A stretch of 63,782 bases of DNA, the filler included, from an uncultured Ignavibacteriales bacterium (GTDB taxonomy: Bacteria > Zixibacteria > MSB-5A5 > GN15 > JAAZOE01), in assembly GCA_964611355.1 (NCBI GenBank). It is 3 parts of 3 records of this genome, joined end to end, with 100 filler letters (N's around TTAATTAATTAA, not from the genome) between each part and the next. Parts side by side here need not be neighbours in the genome. Positions count along the whole stretch, not along the records: positions 52,951 to 63,782 come from CAZSYD010000068.1; 2 more parts are not named here. The stretch is one strand, 5' to 3'. Positions 54,617 through 60,175 of the stretch are shown one piece after another. The first letter of the stretch is position 1; each line of letters begins with the position of its first letter. The notes beneath the pieces are model-generated. The model had not been told where the DNA came from and searched no databases. It saw only the letters and a program-made list of their open reading frames with translations. A program made the position numbers and the translations under genes.

Positions 54617-56860
54617 ATGGCTGATGCCAAAACGAAAACAAAATTGACTGCCGGAAAGACTGGAGGTGAAAAGGCAAAAAAGAGTAAAACCAAAACCTCG
54701 AGAGCCAAAAAGACCAAAACGGCCAAGGCCAAAATGGTAAAAACCAGGGCGGTTGAAGAAAAGAAAAAGACCACCAGAAAAACAACGGAGATTGAGAGGG
54801 TTATTACCGAGCGGAAACGCCGCATAGCGGAAAAGGCGACTCAACGGGCGAAGATGGTTGTCGAGCCGAAATATGAGCCGGAGCCGATTCAATCGATGAA
54901 GCTGACGGAGCTTGATGCGGCTGAATATGACGCCGATGAATACGAGCAAATGATGGCGATGTACGACGGTACTATCCAGGATATCAAGGAAGGTGAAATC
55001 GTTCCTGGTACGGTAATCGGCATAACCCGAGAGGATATTATTGTCGATGTCGGTTTCAAATCCGAAGGTATCATCCCGATAGGCGAATTTACCGGCGATG
55101 TCAATATCAAGATCGGCGACAAGATTGACGTTTACCTCGATGCGGTTGAGGATCAGAATGGACAGCTTGTGCTTTCCAAGCAAAAAGCGGATTTCATGAT
55201 GGTCTGGGATAGGATCCGCGTCTCGCATGACGCAGGCGAACTGGTCCGGGGCAGGGTCAAACGGCGTATCAAGGGCGGTGTTGTGGTTGATGTCATGGGC
55301 GTGGATGCCTTTTTGCCGGGCTCGCAGATCGCTCTTCGTCAGGTGCCTGATTTTGACGCCCTCATCGGCCAGGAGATGGACGTCAAGATCATCAAGCTGA
55401 ATAAAAGCCGGCGTAATATCGTTATCTCGCGACGTGTGGTTCTTGAGGAGGAACGCAACCAGTTGCGCGATCAGCTTCTCAGCGAGATTGAAATCGGGCA
55501 GTTGCGCGAGGGTGTGATCAAGAATATTACCGACTTCGGCGTGTTCATTGATCTTGGTGGCGTGGACGGGCTGTTGCATATCACCGATATGTCCTGGGGG
55601 AGGATGCGGCATCCGTCTGAGATGGTTCAGTTGGGCGACAAGCTGAAGGTTAAAATCCTCGATTTTGATGAAAAGACGTCCCGCATTTCGCTCGGCATGA
55701 AGCAGTTGACGCCGTATCCGTGGGAAAACATCGAAGAAAAGTACCCTATCAATAAGAGAGTCAAGGGAAAGGTAGTTTCCATTACCGATTACGGCGCTTT
55801 CGTGGAGTTGGAGAAAGGCATTGAGGGTCTGATCCATATATCGGAGATGTCCTGGACTCAGCATATCAAGCACCCTTCCAAGATTATGAGTCTTGGCGAT
55901 ACGGTTGAAGCGGTGGTGCTGTCGGTCGACAAGGAAAACGAAAAGATTTCGCTCGGCATCAAGCAGATGGAACCCGATCCGTGGATCGCTGTCCATGAGA
56001 AATACCCGGTTGGCTCGGTTGTCAGAGGTAAAGTGCGGAATTTGACCGCTTTTGGAGCCTTTATTGAGATTGAAGAAGGGATCGACGGCCTGGTCCATAT
56101 CTCCGATATGTCCTGGACCAGGCGCATACAACATCCTTCGGAAATCATGAAGAAGGGTGCGGCCATTGACGTCAAGGTTCTCCGGATTGATTCCGAGAAC
56201 CGGCGGGTTTCCCTGGGGATTAAGCAGCTTAAGGAAGATCCATGGCCGGCATACGCCAAAAAGTATGGCGTTGGTAATGAAGTCCTCGGGGTTATTACGC
56301 GCGTTATGGATCGTGGCCTGATGGTTGAGCTCGACGGCGAGGTGGAAGGATTTGTGCCGGCCAACCAGCTTGGCAAGGAAGGTATGAACAAACCGACTGA
56401 GACTTTCAAAGACGGCGAGCAGATTCCTCTGAAGGTGGTCGAATTCGATCGCGCCGCCCGTAAGATCGTCGTGTCGCTTTCGGCCTATTTTGAAAAGCGC
56501 GACCGCGAGGAGTACGAGGCTTTTCTGGCCAAACGGCTGACTCAAAGCGTCAGCATGGCCGACGTTGCAGGCGACAGCATTTTTGCAGTCCCGACCGGAA
56601 CTGCTGAACCGAAGGAAACCCCCGCCGAACAAGAGCCCATAGAACAAACTCCGCCTGAACCGGCTCTCGATAATGAGGCTCCGAAGGCTGAAGCTTCTGT
56701 GCCTGAATCCTCTACTGATCCCGAAGGATCTGCAGAGACTGAACCCGAACCGGAAGAAAGCGGGCCTGAGGCTTTGGCCGATCAACCGGCGGATGAGAAA
56801 CCTTCCGAGGAAACTCCTTCGCAGGAAACCGCATCCGGAGAGGAAATGACCGACGAATAA
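54617..56860 (+). CDS. rpsA: 30S ribosomal protein S1 with a basic N-terminal and an acidic C-terminal extension
   Basis: Six S1 repeats ('DVGFKSEG', 'AFLPGSQ', 'DGLLHI.D.SW' etc.); SD AAGGAGG. Confidence 0.96.
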   Translation: MADAKTKTKLTAGKTGGEKAKKSKTKTSRAKKTKTAKAKMVKTRAVEEKKKTTRKTTEIERVITERKRRIAEKATQRAKMVVEPKYEPEPIQSMKLTELDAAEYDADEYEQMMAMYDGTIQDIKEGEIVPGTVIGITREDIIVDVGFKSEGIIPIGEFTGDVNIKIGDKIDVYLDAVEDQNGQLVLSKQKADFMMVWDRIRVSHDAGELVRGRVKRRIKGGVVVDVMGVDAFLPGSQIALRQVPDFDALIGQEMDVKIIKLNKSRRNIVISRRVVLEEERNQLRDQLLSEIEIGQLREGVIKNITDFGVFIDLGGVDGLLHITDMSWGRMRHPSEMVQLGDKLKVKILDFDEKTSRISLGMKQLTPYPWENIEEKYPINKRVKGKVVSITDYGAFVELEKGIEGLIHISEMSWTQHIKHPSKIMSLGDTVEAVVLSVDKENEKISLGIKQMEPDPWIAVHEKYPVGSVVRGKVRNLTAFGAFIEIEEGIDGLVHISDMSWTRRIQHPSEIMKKGAAIDVKVLRIDSENRRVSLGIKQLKEDPWPAYAKKYGVGNEVLGVITRVMDRGLMVELDGEVEGFVPANQLGKEGMNKPTETFKDGEQIPLKVVEFDRAARKIVVSLSAYFEKRDREEYEAFLAKRLTQSVSMADVAGDSIFAVPTGTAEPKETPAEQEPIEQTPPEPALDNEAPKAEASVPESSTDPEGSAETEPEPEESGPEALADQPADEKPSEETPSQETASGEEMTDE

Positions 56861-56886: not shown

Positions 56887-56913
56887 AAAGGCCCGATCTC
56901 CCGGGCCTTTTTT
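56887..56913 (+). terminator. Intrinsic terminator after rpsA
   Basis: AAAGGCCCG-ATCTCC-CGGGCCTTTTTT. Confidence 0.85.
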
Positions 56914-56959: not shown

Positions 56960-56989
56960 TTGACATTAACACCCAAACCCTTTATTAAT
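56960..56989 (+). promoter_or_regulatory. Sigma70-like promoter of the four-gene membrane operon
   Basis: TTGACA-N17-TATTAA(T), ending 5-6 nt before the GTG at 56995. Confidence 0.5.
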
Positions 56990-56994
56990 GGGCC

Positions 56995-57984
56995 GTGAAC
57001 GGCATCAACAATACCATTCGGCAGTTCTGTTTTGGTCTGATCTTTCTGGTATTGACAGTATCATTTATTCAAGCCGATTCAACTGATACTTCAATAGATT
57101 CAACGGTCGCTAAAGAAGCCAAAACCGATTCGGTTACCGTATCAGCCGCCTCACCCGGAATTCCGGAAGAACCTCCAGACGTCTCGGGAACGCAGTCCGA
57201 CTCGGGGTCTCTTTTTCAGACTAAGCGGATTAACGCCTTGGTTTTAATGACAATTTTCTCGGTTGTTATTCTTCTTTATACGAAATGGGCCAAAGCCGGA
57301 AAGCCGCTTTTCGTCAGGAAAATAAGCGGCCTTGATCAGGTTGAAGAAGCGGTGGGACGCGCCACCGAAATGGGCAAGCCGGTGCTGTTTATTCCCGGAT
57401 TACAGGAAATCGACGAGATCGAAACAATCGCCGGTATTTCGATTTTGGGCCAGGTGGCCCGCATCACCGCCCGTTATGATACGCCGCTTATGGTTCCGGT
57501 TCGGTATCCGATGGTTCTGGCCGCCGGGCAGGAGGTAGTTGAGCAAGCGTATATCGAAGAGGGCAAGCCGGACGCCTGCGATAAGGATACCGTTCGTTAC
57601 GTGGCCGGCGAGCAATTCGCCTTTACCGCTACCGTCAACGGCCTGATGATGCGGGAACGTCCCGCCACAAATATTTATATGGGCGCTTTTTTCGCCGAGT
57701 CGCTTCTTCTGGCCGAGACCGGTAACGCCGCCGGATCGATTCAGATCGCCGGCACCGCCCAGCCGGCGCAGTTGCCCTTTTTTATCGCCGCCTGTGATTA
57801 TACCCTGATGGGCGAGGAGTTGTATGCCGCTTCGGCTTACCTGTCGCGCGAACCGCTTCTCCTGGGCGGTTTGAAAGGCCAGGACTGGATGAAGCTGCTT
57901 TTTGTCGTCCTGATTTTGCTGGGCGTTCTCCTGGCCGGTCTCAGTATGGGCGATTGGTACCTGTCCCTTTTTGAGAGTGTGTAA
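56995..57984 (+). CDS. Uncharacterised membrane protein (DUF6754-like; subunit A)
   Basis: Signal peptide, S/T/D-rich linker, TM, 'GL....EAVGRATEMGKP', 'AESL..AE', 'DY.L.GEE.YAA.AYL', C-terminal TM. Confidence 0.75.
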   Translation: MNGINNTIRQFCFGLIFLVLTVSFIQADSTDTSIDSTVAKEAKTDSVTVSAASPGIPEEPPDVSGTQSDSGSLFQTKRINALVLMTIFSVVILLYTKWAKAGKPLFVRKISGLDQVEEAVGRATEMGKPVLFIPGLQEIDEIETIAGISILGQVARITARYDTPLMVPVRYPMVLAAGQEVVEQAYIEEGKPDACDKDTVRYVAGEQFAFTATVNGLMMRERPATNIYMGAFFAESLLLAETGNAAGSIQIAGTAQPAQLPFFIAACDYTLMGEELYAASAYLSREPLLLGGLKGQDWMKLLFVVLILLGVLLAGLSMGDWYLSLFESV

Positions 57985-58644
57985 ATGAAAACGACGTTTC
58001 CGGCTGTAATCGCTTTCTTTTCAGGATTGGTGATGATTGTGGCTTTCTTTTTCAATCCGGAAAGAAGTTTTGTCGGCGGACTGGAGTCGGAAGTGTTGAG
58101 TTGGGTAACGATCGTCGGCGGTTTTACCCTGCTTCTGGGCGTGGTTTCGCTGGTAAGAGTCAACTATTCGGCGGTCAAAAGGAAAAGCGAAGACTGGATA
58201 TTCAAGCTGGCGACGTTGATTTCCGTATTTGTCATGGCTATTCCGGCCATACTCCCGAAAAATGTGTCGTCTCTTTTCGGGCGGGACGTCGGCTCCATTT
58301 ACGACTGGCTGTTTAATTATGTCGATGCGCCCATGATGTCGACCATGTTCGCCATGCTGGCCTTTTATATCGCCTCGGCCGCCTTTCGGGCTTTCCGGGC
58401 GCGCAACGCCGAAGCGACCCTGCTTTTGGTAACCGCCACGCTGGTCATGCTGTGGCGGGTGCCGATGGGTGAGATAGCCTTAAAGAGTATCCATGCGAAC
58501 CTGCCATATCTGATTAACACCTACATCATGAACGGCGCCAACCTGGCGGTCCAGCGCGGAATAATTATCGGCGCCGCCCTGGGAGCGGCGGCCATGTCGC
58601 TGCGGATTATGCTCGGCATTGAACGAACCTACATGGGGAAATAA
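57985..58644 (+). CDS. Uncharacterised ~6-TM membrane protein (subunit B)
   Basis: Abuts the previous stop; 'FYIASAAFRAFRARN.EA' and 'RGIIIGAALG'. Confidence 0.75.
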   Translation: MKTTFPAVIAFFSGLVMIVAFFFNPERSFVGGLESEVLSWVTIVGGFTLLLGVVSLVRVNYSAVKRKSEDWIFKLATLISVFVMAIPAILPKNVSSLFGRDVGSIYDWLFNYVDAPMMSTMFAMLAFYIASAAFRAFRARNAEATLLLVTATLVMLWRVPMGEIALKSIHANLPYLINTYIMNGANLAVQRGIIIGAALGAAAMSLRIMLGIERTYMGK

Positions 58645-58649
58645 AACCA

Positions 58650-59537
58650 ATGCAGATATGGCTGATACCGGCATATATCCTTTTAATTCTTACCGGCGTT
58701 TTTCTGCTTTACCTGGCCTTTAAGACCGAAGACCGCCGATATATCTATCTGGCAGTGGCTTTCTACGTTATTTTCCCCGTGCTGATAACACTTAAGCTTC
58801 CGATCGATATTTCTCCCGAAGCGAGGCAATTATATGATGCCGTAGAATCGCTTCCCGATTCATCAACCGTGCTTCTGACCTTTGATTATTATCCTTCGAC
58901 AGTGGCAGAAACCGAACCGATGTCGCGGGCGGCGCTGCGTCACCTTTTCGGCAAAGACTGCCGAGTGTTGACTTTGACTACTGTTCCGCTGGGCGGGCCG
59001 TCTATCGCCGAAAGAGTAACTCGTGAGATAGCCAAAGAATTCGGCAAGGTATACGGAGTTGACTATGCCAATCTGGGGTTCAAGTACAATTATGTTGCGG
59101 TACTGAAAGGTATGGGCAATTCCATCGAGGCTATCTATCCGGCCGATAATTCCGGGACTCCGTTGTCCGAAATACCGATGATGGCAGATATTAAAAACTA
59201 CAATGATATAGACTTCATTTTTCTGGTATCCGACAACGGCGTGGTCGATTACTGGATATCGATTGTCAATGCCCAGTATGGTATTCGGGTCGGATCGGGC
59301 GTAACCGCGGTGATGGCTCCCAAGTTTTACGCTTATATCGGATCGGGACAGATGACCGGACTTCTGGGCGGCATGAAAGGAGCGGCGGAATATGAATTGC
59401 TGGTTCATAAGCCGGATACGGCGGTCAAAGGCATGACTGCGCAGTCGCTGGTGCACCTGTTTATTATCCTGTCGGTGATAGCGGGCAATATCGTTTTCCT
59501 GAGCGGTAAAAGGCGGCGCAAGAGGGGGGCGGCGTGA
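58650..59537 (+). CDS. Uncharacterised membrane protein (subunit A')
   Basis: Two N-terminal TMs, alpha/beta domain with 'FDY.P...E..PM', 'YG.DY.NLG', 'GLLGG.KGAAEYE', C-terminal TM then KRRRKR. Confidence 0.75.
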   Translation: MQIWLIPAYILLILTGVFLLYLAFKTEDRRYIYLAVAFYVIFPVLITLKLPIDISPEARQLYDAVESLPDSSTVLLTFDYYPSTVAETEPMSRAALRHLFGKDCRVLTLTTVPLGGPSIAERVTREIAKEFGKVYGVDYANLGFKYNYVAVLKGMGNSIEAIYPADNSGTPLSEIPMMADIKNYNDIDFIFLVSDNGVVDYWISIVNAQYGIRVGSGVTAVMAPKFYAYIGSGQMTGLLGGMKGAAEYELLVHKPDTAVKGMTAQSLVHLFIILSVIAGNIVFLSGKRRRKRGAA

Positions 59538-60175
59538 ACCTGGTTGATTTCCTGCAAATCTGGATTATTGCCTTTTTTACTCTGTCGCTTTTCTCGTTTC
59601 TTTACCGCGATAACCCATTTTACAAGCTGGCGGAACATATCTTTGCCGGTCTTTCGGCCGGTTATTACGTCGGTCTGATCTGGCATTCGATCATCCTGCA
59701 GCAGATGATTAACCCGATGTTCGACAATGGGAAATGGTACCTGGTTTTTCCGGGTCTTCTGGGTGTTTTAATGTTTTCCCGCTTTTTCAAAAAATATCAC
59801 TGGATCAGCCGCATTTCACTGGCCTTCGTAATGGGCAATACCGCCGGGATATTTTTGCTTTCCGAACTGCACGGCAAGGTGCTTCCTCAAATGCAATCCA
59901 CGATGAACTCGCTTGTCCCGGGGCGCGGGGTCGGCGGTTATATTCTCGGACTGATTGTCGTGGTAGGGGTGCTGTCAACTTTACTCTATTTTTACTTTTC
60001 CAGGGAGCACAAAGGACTGCTGGGCGGAACGGCTAAAGTCGGTATCTGGTTTATTATGGTCTCTTTTGGAGCGCACTTTGGTTATACCGTCATGGCGCGA
60101 ATTTCGCTTCTTATCGGTCGCGTTCAGTTTCTCATTAATGATTGGTGCGGAAGTATCATCGGGCTTTTTTCCTGA
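59534..60175 (+). CDS. Uncharacterised ~6-TM membrane protein (subunit B')
   Basis: GTGA overlap with the previous gene; 'SFLY.DNP.YK.AEH.F.G...G' and 'FGA.FG.TVM.R.SLL..R'. Confidence 0.75.
   Translation: MNLVDFLQIWIIAFFTLSLFSFLYRDNPFYKLAEHIFAGLSAGYYVGLIWHSIILQQMINPMFDNGKWYLVFPGLLGVLMFSRFFKKYHWISRISLAFVMGNTAGIFLLSELHGKVLPQMQSTMNSLVPGRGVGGYILGLIVVVGVLSTLLYFYFSREHKGLLGGTAKVGIWFIMVSFGAHFGYTVMARISLLIGRVQFLINDWCGSIIGLFS

Follow-up and report, generated by a model that had tools for sequence, protein, structure and literature searches.

Which kind of membrane system is encoded by four closely packed genes of an uncultured bacterium from the Zixibacteria, and did these genes arise by duplication of an older pair? 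The genes are located at positions 56995–60175 of a stretch of DNA of 63,782 nucleotides (NCBI GenBank assembly GCA_964611355.1, labelled there as an uncultured Ignavibacteriales bacterium), which is called the window in the following. An earlier inspection, the sequence-only reading, had suggested an arrangement A-B-A'-B' of inverted topology, produced by an ancient duplication and resulting in a pseudo-symmetric transporter or channel. The computational analysis described here supports this suggestion in part. The window holds, with high probability, a genuine member of a conserved four-subunit module which is headed by a protein of the Pfam family DUF6754. This module could tentatively be regarded as a heteromeric, ATPase-linked translocator that is conserved on its cytoplasmic side and varies on its outer one; to this reading, which was drawn from sequences and models, a probability of about 45% may be assigned.

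The four-gene module and its family

The genes were designated g1 to g4 and their products subunits A to D; all features given here are encoded on the plus strand. Subunit A (g1, 56995–57984) has 329 amino acids and a GTG start, and is a DUF6754 protein of the type without an ectodomain, with orthologs of 65–85% identity. Subunit B (g2, 57985–58644) consists of 219 amino acids with six transmembrane (TM) helices and a predicted inner N-terminus (N-in). Subunit C (g3, 58650–59537; 295 amino acids) comprises a TM helix, a Rossmann-like domain predicted to be periplasmic, a second TM helix and a basic cytoplasmic tail. Subunit D (g4, 59534–60175; 213 amino acids) has six TM helices, probably with the N-terminus outside (N-out), and a C-terminal amphipathic segment. 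The open reading frames and junctions were exactly as given before, with gaps of 0, 5 and -4 nucleotides: reading of the sequence showed that the stop codon TAA of g1 is directly followed by ATG, that AACCA separates TAA and ATG between g2 and g3, and that g3 and g4 overlap by the four nucleotides GTGA.

The product of g1 matched DUF6754 (PF20539) with 390.9 bits (E 2.8e-117, model positions 4–249 of 257), the gathering score being 27 bits. No Pfam or NCBIfam match was obtained for g2, g3 and g4, and a Pfam scan of every member of their alignments revealed no recurrent family. Neither an ABC ATPase nor a cognate permease family was matched by g1–g4 in Pfam and NCBIfam; MotA_ExbB and ExbD/MotB domains were likewise not matched, using the same library which recognises the real TolQ and TolR of the phylum. 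None of the four proteins matched a PADLOC family at E<=0.1, i.e., no known anti-phage defence system was indicated, and profile searches of PDB sequences with the four protein cores yielded nothing meaningful. In the literature nothing was found on DUF6754, PF20539 or PF13941 (the family of a candidate partner, see below), by name or accession, nor for Zixibacteria in combination with fibronectin type III and membrane, and the combination of GlmL, actin and membrane yielded nothing relevant. The statement that DUF6754-like clusters have no assigned function is thus upheld by the literature search and by Pfam, where the family is listed as a DUF only.

The module was defined as a DUF6754 gene, a gene for a six-TM subunit B, one for a subunit C of the type TM-domain-TM and one for a six-TM subunit D, in this order, as present in the window. 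Orthologs were taken from the best 80 related loci, all from Zixibacteria-type metagenome-assembled genomes. The order g1-g2-g3-g4 was kept in all 67 orthologous loci whose DNA comprised 3.3 kb or more, and the median identities to orthologs were 76% (g1), 68% (g2), 64% (g3) and 68% (g4); the values for MetK and a sugar-phosphate nucleotidyltransferase, both encoded downstream, were 74% and 52%, respectively. Three further salt-marsh runs contained identical contigs. A relative of about 95% identity from a sediment run showed 145 differences, with 29 of the 40 listed ones at third codon positions, and the sole insertion or deletion was an in-frame GGC.

Diverged copies of the module are numerous. 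In 27 further loci 65 DUF6754 genes were counted, 61 of them heading full modules (one on a contig which is not from Zixibacteria, L087), while three were truncated at the locus end and one was an orphan; many genomes contain three modules in tandem. Distance matrices of g1 to g4 over 62 modules were correlated with r 0.87–0.94, compared to a permuted maximum of 0.12, with shared ancestry contributing to these values. A concatenated tree assigned array positions 1, 2 and 3 to separate clades with a support of 1.0 and the module type of the window to a long branch of its own. From the correlations and the clades it follows that the module was duplicated and inherited as a unit, and that the paralog groups are old. 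The four genes are therefore co-conserved, as had been anticipated, in the 67 orthologous loci as well as in the 61 paralogous modules.

Some deviating arrangements were also noticed. Two tandem DUF6754 genes precede a single g2-g3-g4 set in three orthologous loci, at L048:1349-3140, L037:5052-6789 and L066:3659-5435. One Zixibacteria contig encodes a protein of 571 amino acids (P0293) with full-length g3 and g4 parts, which may be a natural fusion or a frameshift artefact at an overlapping junction of the GTGA type, and it was not used as evidence.

DUF6754 was present in all 121 sampled Zixibacteria genomes, mostly with 4–6 matches (579 in total), and in none of 14 control genomes. A profile search of 1.84 billion representatives yielded 2539 clusters with E<=1e-3, 1169 of which reached E<=1e-30. 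Among the best 150 matches DUF6754 was C-terminal and preceded by 0 to about 1000 residues, which include fn3 domains and PQQ-type propellers in the long forms. On contig L087 a DUF6754 protein of 1276 amino acids, labelled Candidatus Brocadiia by NCBI, is the product of the second such gene, an orphan without g2–g4 behind it; the first one (1277 amino acids) heads a complete four-gene module, with a gene for a coiled-coil OmpA-family protein directly downstream. The order on this contig (L087:6101-6865 and L087:7001-15483) is OmpA-family gene, orphan DUF6754 gene and then three genes for proteins of 450–490 amino acids without family.

Long g2 homologs from cultured Planctomycetes were named, i.e., from Rubinisphaera brasiliensis, Thalassoroseus pseudoceratinae and Caulifigura coniformis. 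The atlas neighbours of a g1 homolog were DUF6754 clusters from Cloacimonadota, Eiseniibacteriota, Planctomycetota and Poribacteria; those of a g3 homolog were clusters without family from Fidelibacterota, WOR-3 and Zixibacteria. A search for homologous proteins with g3 detected only close Zixibacteria-type relatives.

Topology and structure of the subunits

Subunit A begins with a signal-peptide-like sequence (56995–57075, residues 1–27, ending with SFIQA before DS); an acidic linker rich in Ser and Thr then extends up to residue 75. The first TM helix (57220–57294, residues 76–100), which would run from outside to inside, corresponds to helix 7–31 of an AlphaFold2 model starting at residue 70. 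Then follow the Rossmann-like domain (57295–57852, residues 101–286), which is predicted to be cytoplasmic and is the best-conserved part of the module with a mean top-residue frequency of 0.70, and a C-terminal TM helix (57853–57939, residues 287–315, from the model). In paralogs the N-terminus of the window's protein is replaced by a signal peptide and an FN3-like domain of about 100 amino acids, whose profile matched titin Fn3 (E 0.0015). FN3 and FG-GAP domains are extracytoplasmic. The exported domain at the N-termini of paralogs therefore assigns the N-terminus of g1 to the outer side and the domain behind the first TM helix to the cytoplasm; this location, already proposed, agrees also with the signal-peptide-like N-terminus and the bias of lysine plus arginine (K+R).

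The alpha/beta domain of subunit C (58785–59417, residues 46–256; model pLDDT 94.3) is followed by a TM helix (59418–59531, residues 257–294) with invariant H269 and N280 and the terminal KRRRKR. Most g3 orthologs have 278 amino acids, lack the first helix of the window's protein and start at the basic segment DRRWIYL, and a basic C-terminal tail was present in all orthologs. The basic N-terminal segment and the tail thus indicate N-in, domain out and C-in. This agrees with the periplasmic domain and the basic tail described earlier for g3, but the TM hairpin postulated in front of the domain would not appear to be a general feature, its first helix being absent in most orthologs.

In subunit B the family-averaged K+R content was about 10.7 on the N-in side versus about 3 on the other; for subunit D N-out was favoured less clearly, by about 7 versus 5. 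Conserved in g2 are the cytoplasmic motif ASAA(F/Y)RAFRAR and the C-terminal GIERTYxGK, and in g4 the predicted cytoplasmic stretches KDNPFYK, FSKEHKG and the basic loop 3. Conservation was high on the predicted inner side, with 0.79 for loop 4 and 0.78 for the C-tail of g2, and 0.79, 0.61 and 0.75 for loops 1, 3 and 5 of g4, and low in the loops predicted to face outward (0.32–0.41); the values for predicted inner versus outer loops were 0.62 versus 0.37 (g2) and 0.71 versus 0.35 (g4). Exported-type inserts in g2 and g4 homologs are situated in these loops of low conservation. A g2 paralog in the third tandem module of L095 (1749-3524) carries an FG-GAP insert of about 390 amino acids, without a TM segment, in the loop between TM3 and TM4, and three g4 homologs have inserts of 250–330 amino acids between TM4 and TM5, one of which includes HHH_3 and a CheB-like domain. 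Similar homologs of g2 with FG-GAP repeats were met several times in the protein database (P0312, P0318-P0320 and P0325). The orientations claimed earlier, N-in for g2 and N-out for g4, fit the K+R bias, the loop conservation and the insertions in loop 3 of g2 and loop 4 of g4. Since charge bias, alternating conservation of loops and insertions of ectodomains agree, the domains of g1 and g3, and likewise g2 and g4, are most likely oriented oppositely.

AlphaFold2 models were obtained for g1 (residues 70–329; pLDDT 92.6, pTM 0.84) and g3 (pLDDT 94.3, pTM 0.89), and they contain the alpha/beta domains of about 200 amino acids which had been postulated for both proteins. In each model a TM helix and one further helix are followed by six strand-helix units, and a long TM helix forms the C-terminus; these elements are equal in order and number. 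Comparison with the PDB by Foldseek resulted for g1 in SIS domains (MurQ, MurR, GmhA), Moco carrier protein and the CODH epsilon subunit (best E 6.9e-4), and for g3 in OtsA and other GT-B halves, eIF2B, short-chain dehydrogenases and again the CODH epsilon subunit (best E 1.3e-3). The TM-scores were 0.2–0.55 at identities of 8–19%, and no single family was prominent. An equal layout and fold of g1 and g3, presumably on opposite faces of the membrane, is supported by these models.

A candidate ATPase partner

A protein of family PF13941, a MutL/GlmL-like actin-fold ATPase with additional weak Hydantoinase_A and MreB-like matches, is encoded in 120 of the 121 Zixibacteria genomes, nearly always once. 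In the single genome where it was missed (G001), the last 77–81 residues of the protein were found in a locus with a run of 100 N (L113, G001:C1:1104188-1107427), and a gap in the assembly or masking of the sequence probably explains the apparent absence. In at least 40 of the 121 genomes the PF13941 gene and a DUF6754 match were not more than 3 kb apart, a lower bound, since the tally covered 150 of the 579 DUF6754 matches; where adjoining, the PF13941 gene is usually divergent from the first module of a tandem array (e.g., L081). Behind the PF13941 gene (about 616 amino acids; L108-L112, e.g., L110:1689-9799) are genes for an exported, C-tail-anchored protein of 256 amino acids and a soluble protein of 374 amino acids, neither with a family. 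These are followed by tolQ in four of the five loci read, and by tolR-tolA-tolB-pal in L110, the one locus which was scanned with Pfam.

Flanking genes and expression signals

Upstream of the module in the window are an acyltransferase gene and rpsA, whose product has six S1 domains; downstream follow genes for the sugar-phosphate nucleotidyltransferase, metK and adenosylhomocysteinase. Of the orthologous loci, 62 extend 3 kb or more ahead of the module, and none of them contains rpsA there; the module is therefore independent of this neighbour. The rpsA product itself (54617-56860, 747 amino acids) has a Lys-rich N-terminal extension of low complexity, comprising about 70–110 residues, and beyond the six S1 domains a long, acidic, Pro/Glu-rich C-terminal tail.

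The unit is bounded upstream by the intrinsic terminator of rpsA (56887–56910; dG -16 kcal/mol, z -3.9), which has a U run behind it and is real, as had been stated. After g4 no terminator-like structure comparable to that of rpsA was detected (z +0.77), and read-through into the next gene is therefore possible. A promoter of its own had also been ascribed to the unit. This claim is backed by a promoter-like sequence TTGACA-17 nt-TATTAA (56960–56988; TTGACA at 56960–65, TATTAA at 56983–88), since a pair TTGAC-17/18 nt-TAT..A was kept in 9 of 13 aligned upstream regions (the window and the 12 closest orthologs), but not by a generic promoter scan, which reported no promoter before g1. The distance from the -10 box to the GTG start is 6 nucleotides in the window, and 4–6 nucleotides across the window, L011 and L006. 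Because the promoter-like pair ends 6 nucleotides before GTG, the mRNA of g1 may be leaderless and begin with GUG. A search of the window and of 29 related loci with Rfam detected no riboswitch.

Proposed function

The preferred reading of the module as an ATPase-linked translocator builds on the genes, their invariable order, their duplication as a group, the two modelled folds and the pattern of conserved inner and variable outer parts, as demonstrated above. From these we infer that subunits A, B, C and D form one complex in the inner membrane. Subunit A would contribute an exported N-terminus, a TM helix, the conserved cytoplasmic Rossmann-like domain and a further TM helix; subunit C would have the same layout, with its domain in the periplasm. 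The cytoplasmic face, consisting of the domain of A and the conserved loops of B and D, could be the working or docking side, and the outer face (the domain of C and, in paralogs, the FN3, propeller or FG-GAP domains on A, B or D) would meet varied partners or substrates. The 4–6 modules of a genome might share one cytoplasmic MutL/GlmL-like actin-fold ATPase, and the complex would then move something over the membrane, or couple events over it, using ATP. The likeliest job would be the translocation of a substrate, probably uptake. A bolder version, a new class of machines in which modules with their own outer domains share an ASKHA ATPase that docks on the domain of A and powers translocation, with A and C being old inverted duplicates, is considered unlikely.

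Several observations weigh against this translocator. In none of the four proteins could a motif for the binding of nucleotides or ions, or a motif of transporters, be recognised, the fold matches of g1 and g3 were weak and generic, and about 400 kb of searched DNA contained no riboswitch or regulator pointing to a substrate. The connection to the ATPase raises further doubts: there is no PF13941 gene within the window, the gene is about 414 kb away from the module in G050, and adjacency is missing in some genomes. Both DUF6754 and PF13941 are nearly universal in the phylum, and their co-occurrence there is uninformative; it is the adjacency which constitutes the real signal, and this was checked within Zixibacteria, a single phylum. 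The ATPase might instead serve the two family-less genes and tol-pal.

Alternative explanations

The explanation offered originally, i.e., that an ancient A-B pair was duplicated and inserted in inverted orientation, which would give a transporter or channel with pseudo-two-fold symmetry and homologous domains on both faces, could account for the equal order of elements in the models of g1 and g3, their opposite orientations, and the six TM helices and similar lengths of g2 and g4. Two families, the CODH/ACDS epsilon subunit and 4-phosphopantoate-beta-alanine ligase, appeared in both lists of the top 50 fold matches, and g1 and g3 have one motif in common, LLGG(L/M)KG, about 10–25 residues before the last TM helix. 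Sequence comparisons do not favour it. For g1 versus g3 hhalign gave 8.8% with the first alignments, covering the TM helix only, and 0.6% with more diverse ones; for g2 versus g4 the values were 0.3% and 0.4%, respectively, and thus no higher than those of the cross-controls g1 versus g4 (0.7%) and g2 versus g3 (10.7%). Scores for the domains of g1 and g3 alone (18.2, compared to 14.5 +/- 3.2 with a maximum of 24.0 in 30 column shuffles) and for g2 and g4 (15.2, compared to 13.7 +/- 2.9 in 25 shuffles) were within the shuffled distributions, and BLASTP found no match within either pair. The last helices of g2 and g4, which had been called similar, do not resemble each other above chance by these whole-protein values. 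A real repeat was detected inside g4, between the regions of TM2 (59633–59725, residues 34–64, EHIFAGLSAGY...) and TM4 (59819–59911, residues 96–126, LAFVMGNTAGI...), with an hhalign score of 25.2 versus 11.6 +/- 1.7 (maximum 15.9) in 40 shuffles. Its copies are two helices apart and therefore of equal orientation; no repeat of this type was found in g2, whose N- and C-terminal halves gave 0.9%. The 30 feature neighbours of a g3 homolog included no DUF6754 cluster. Since the Rossmann-like sandwich is the commonest alpha/beta fold, likeness of fold alone is insufficient for claiming common descent, which is unproven for g1 and g3; for g2 and g4 nothing beyond the number of TM helices is in its favour. 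What persists of the sequence-only reading is a co-inherited unit of four subunits, the common layout of g1 and g3 and the opposite orientations, but an origin by duplication of A and B is improbable.

Two other explanations dispense with translocation. The complex could be an envelope or signalling machine, either holding or moving domains at the surface (FN3, propeller, FG-GAP) or passing on external events to the cytoplasm, possibly together with envelope systems like Tol-Pal; adhesion-type domains on the outer side, a conserved cytoplasmic part as in receptors, the gene for a coiled-coil OmpA-family protein directly behind the module in L087, and the position of PF13941 ahead of tolQRAB-pal in four of five loci would be compatible with such a role. 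This is rather unlikely, since the type found in the window lacks an ectodomain and yet is the best-conserved one, scans of the Pfam/NCBIfam type found no signalling output domain in any subunit, and the Tol-Pal neighbourhood was seen in one phylum only. A membrane-bound enzyme complex, e.g., for the synthesis of lipid-linked glycans or an envelope polymer, with Rossmann-like domains binding a nucleotide or sugar phosphate, is suggested by the SIS sugar-phosphate domains and GT-B halves among the fold matches of g1 and g3, respectively, and by the sugar-phosphate nucleotidyltransferase gene, which follows the module in the window and is present in 46 of the 80 orthologous loci. Such an enzyme is very improbable: the matches are weak (E about 1e-3, TM-scores 0.2–0.5) and scattered over many Rossmann families without mutual relationship, a catalytic motif was not recognisable, a nucleotide-dependent domain of g3 in the periplasm would be without cofactor supply, and the neighbours of paralogous modules are heterogeneous and do not indicate a pathway.

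Significance

The module is of interest because it is present in every sampled Zixibacteria genome, usually in 4–6 diverged copies and with a conservation at the level of MetK, and is common to Planctomycetota, Cloacimonadota and other phyla, and because no known function, solved relative or literature was found for it. A translocator driven by an actin-fold ATPase, if true, would represent a new principle of energy coupling in membrane transport; should A and C be duplicates after all, such a use of one soluble fold on both sides of a membrane would be unusual. Homologs from cultured Planctomycetes make these questions accessible to experiments.

Comparison with known systems

Subunits of the SMR/EmrE type and of Fluc have four TM helices and about 100–130 amino acids. 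The window resembles these inverted pairs in so far as similar-looking partners stand side by side with opposite orientation, which is a prediction here. Its six-TM subunits of 213–219 amino acids and the large soluble domains are unlike them, and homology of the partners, which such pairs require, is not detectable in the pairs of the window. With transporters of the ECF type there is an analogy only, namely 4–6 diverged membrane modules per genome and one candidate cytoplasmic ATPase; those systems consist of an ABC ATPase, EcfT and an S component, none of which was matched here, and the candidate energiser is a MutL/GlmL-like protein with an actin fold (ASKHA), a type which is not known to drive any transporter. 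The models of g1 and g3 belong to the generic Rossmann-like alpha/beta/alpha domains, without a sequence match to a solved chain. The four-gene cassette with DUF6754, which is catalogued in Pfam as a DUF only, has the same g1 family from end to end and the same order of genes as the window; nothing sets the window's copy apart from this cassette, and its subunit A represents the type without an FN3-like outer domain.

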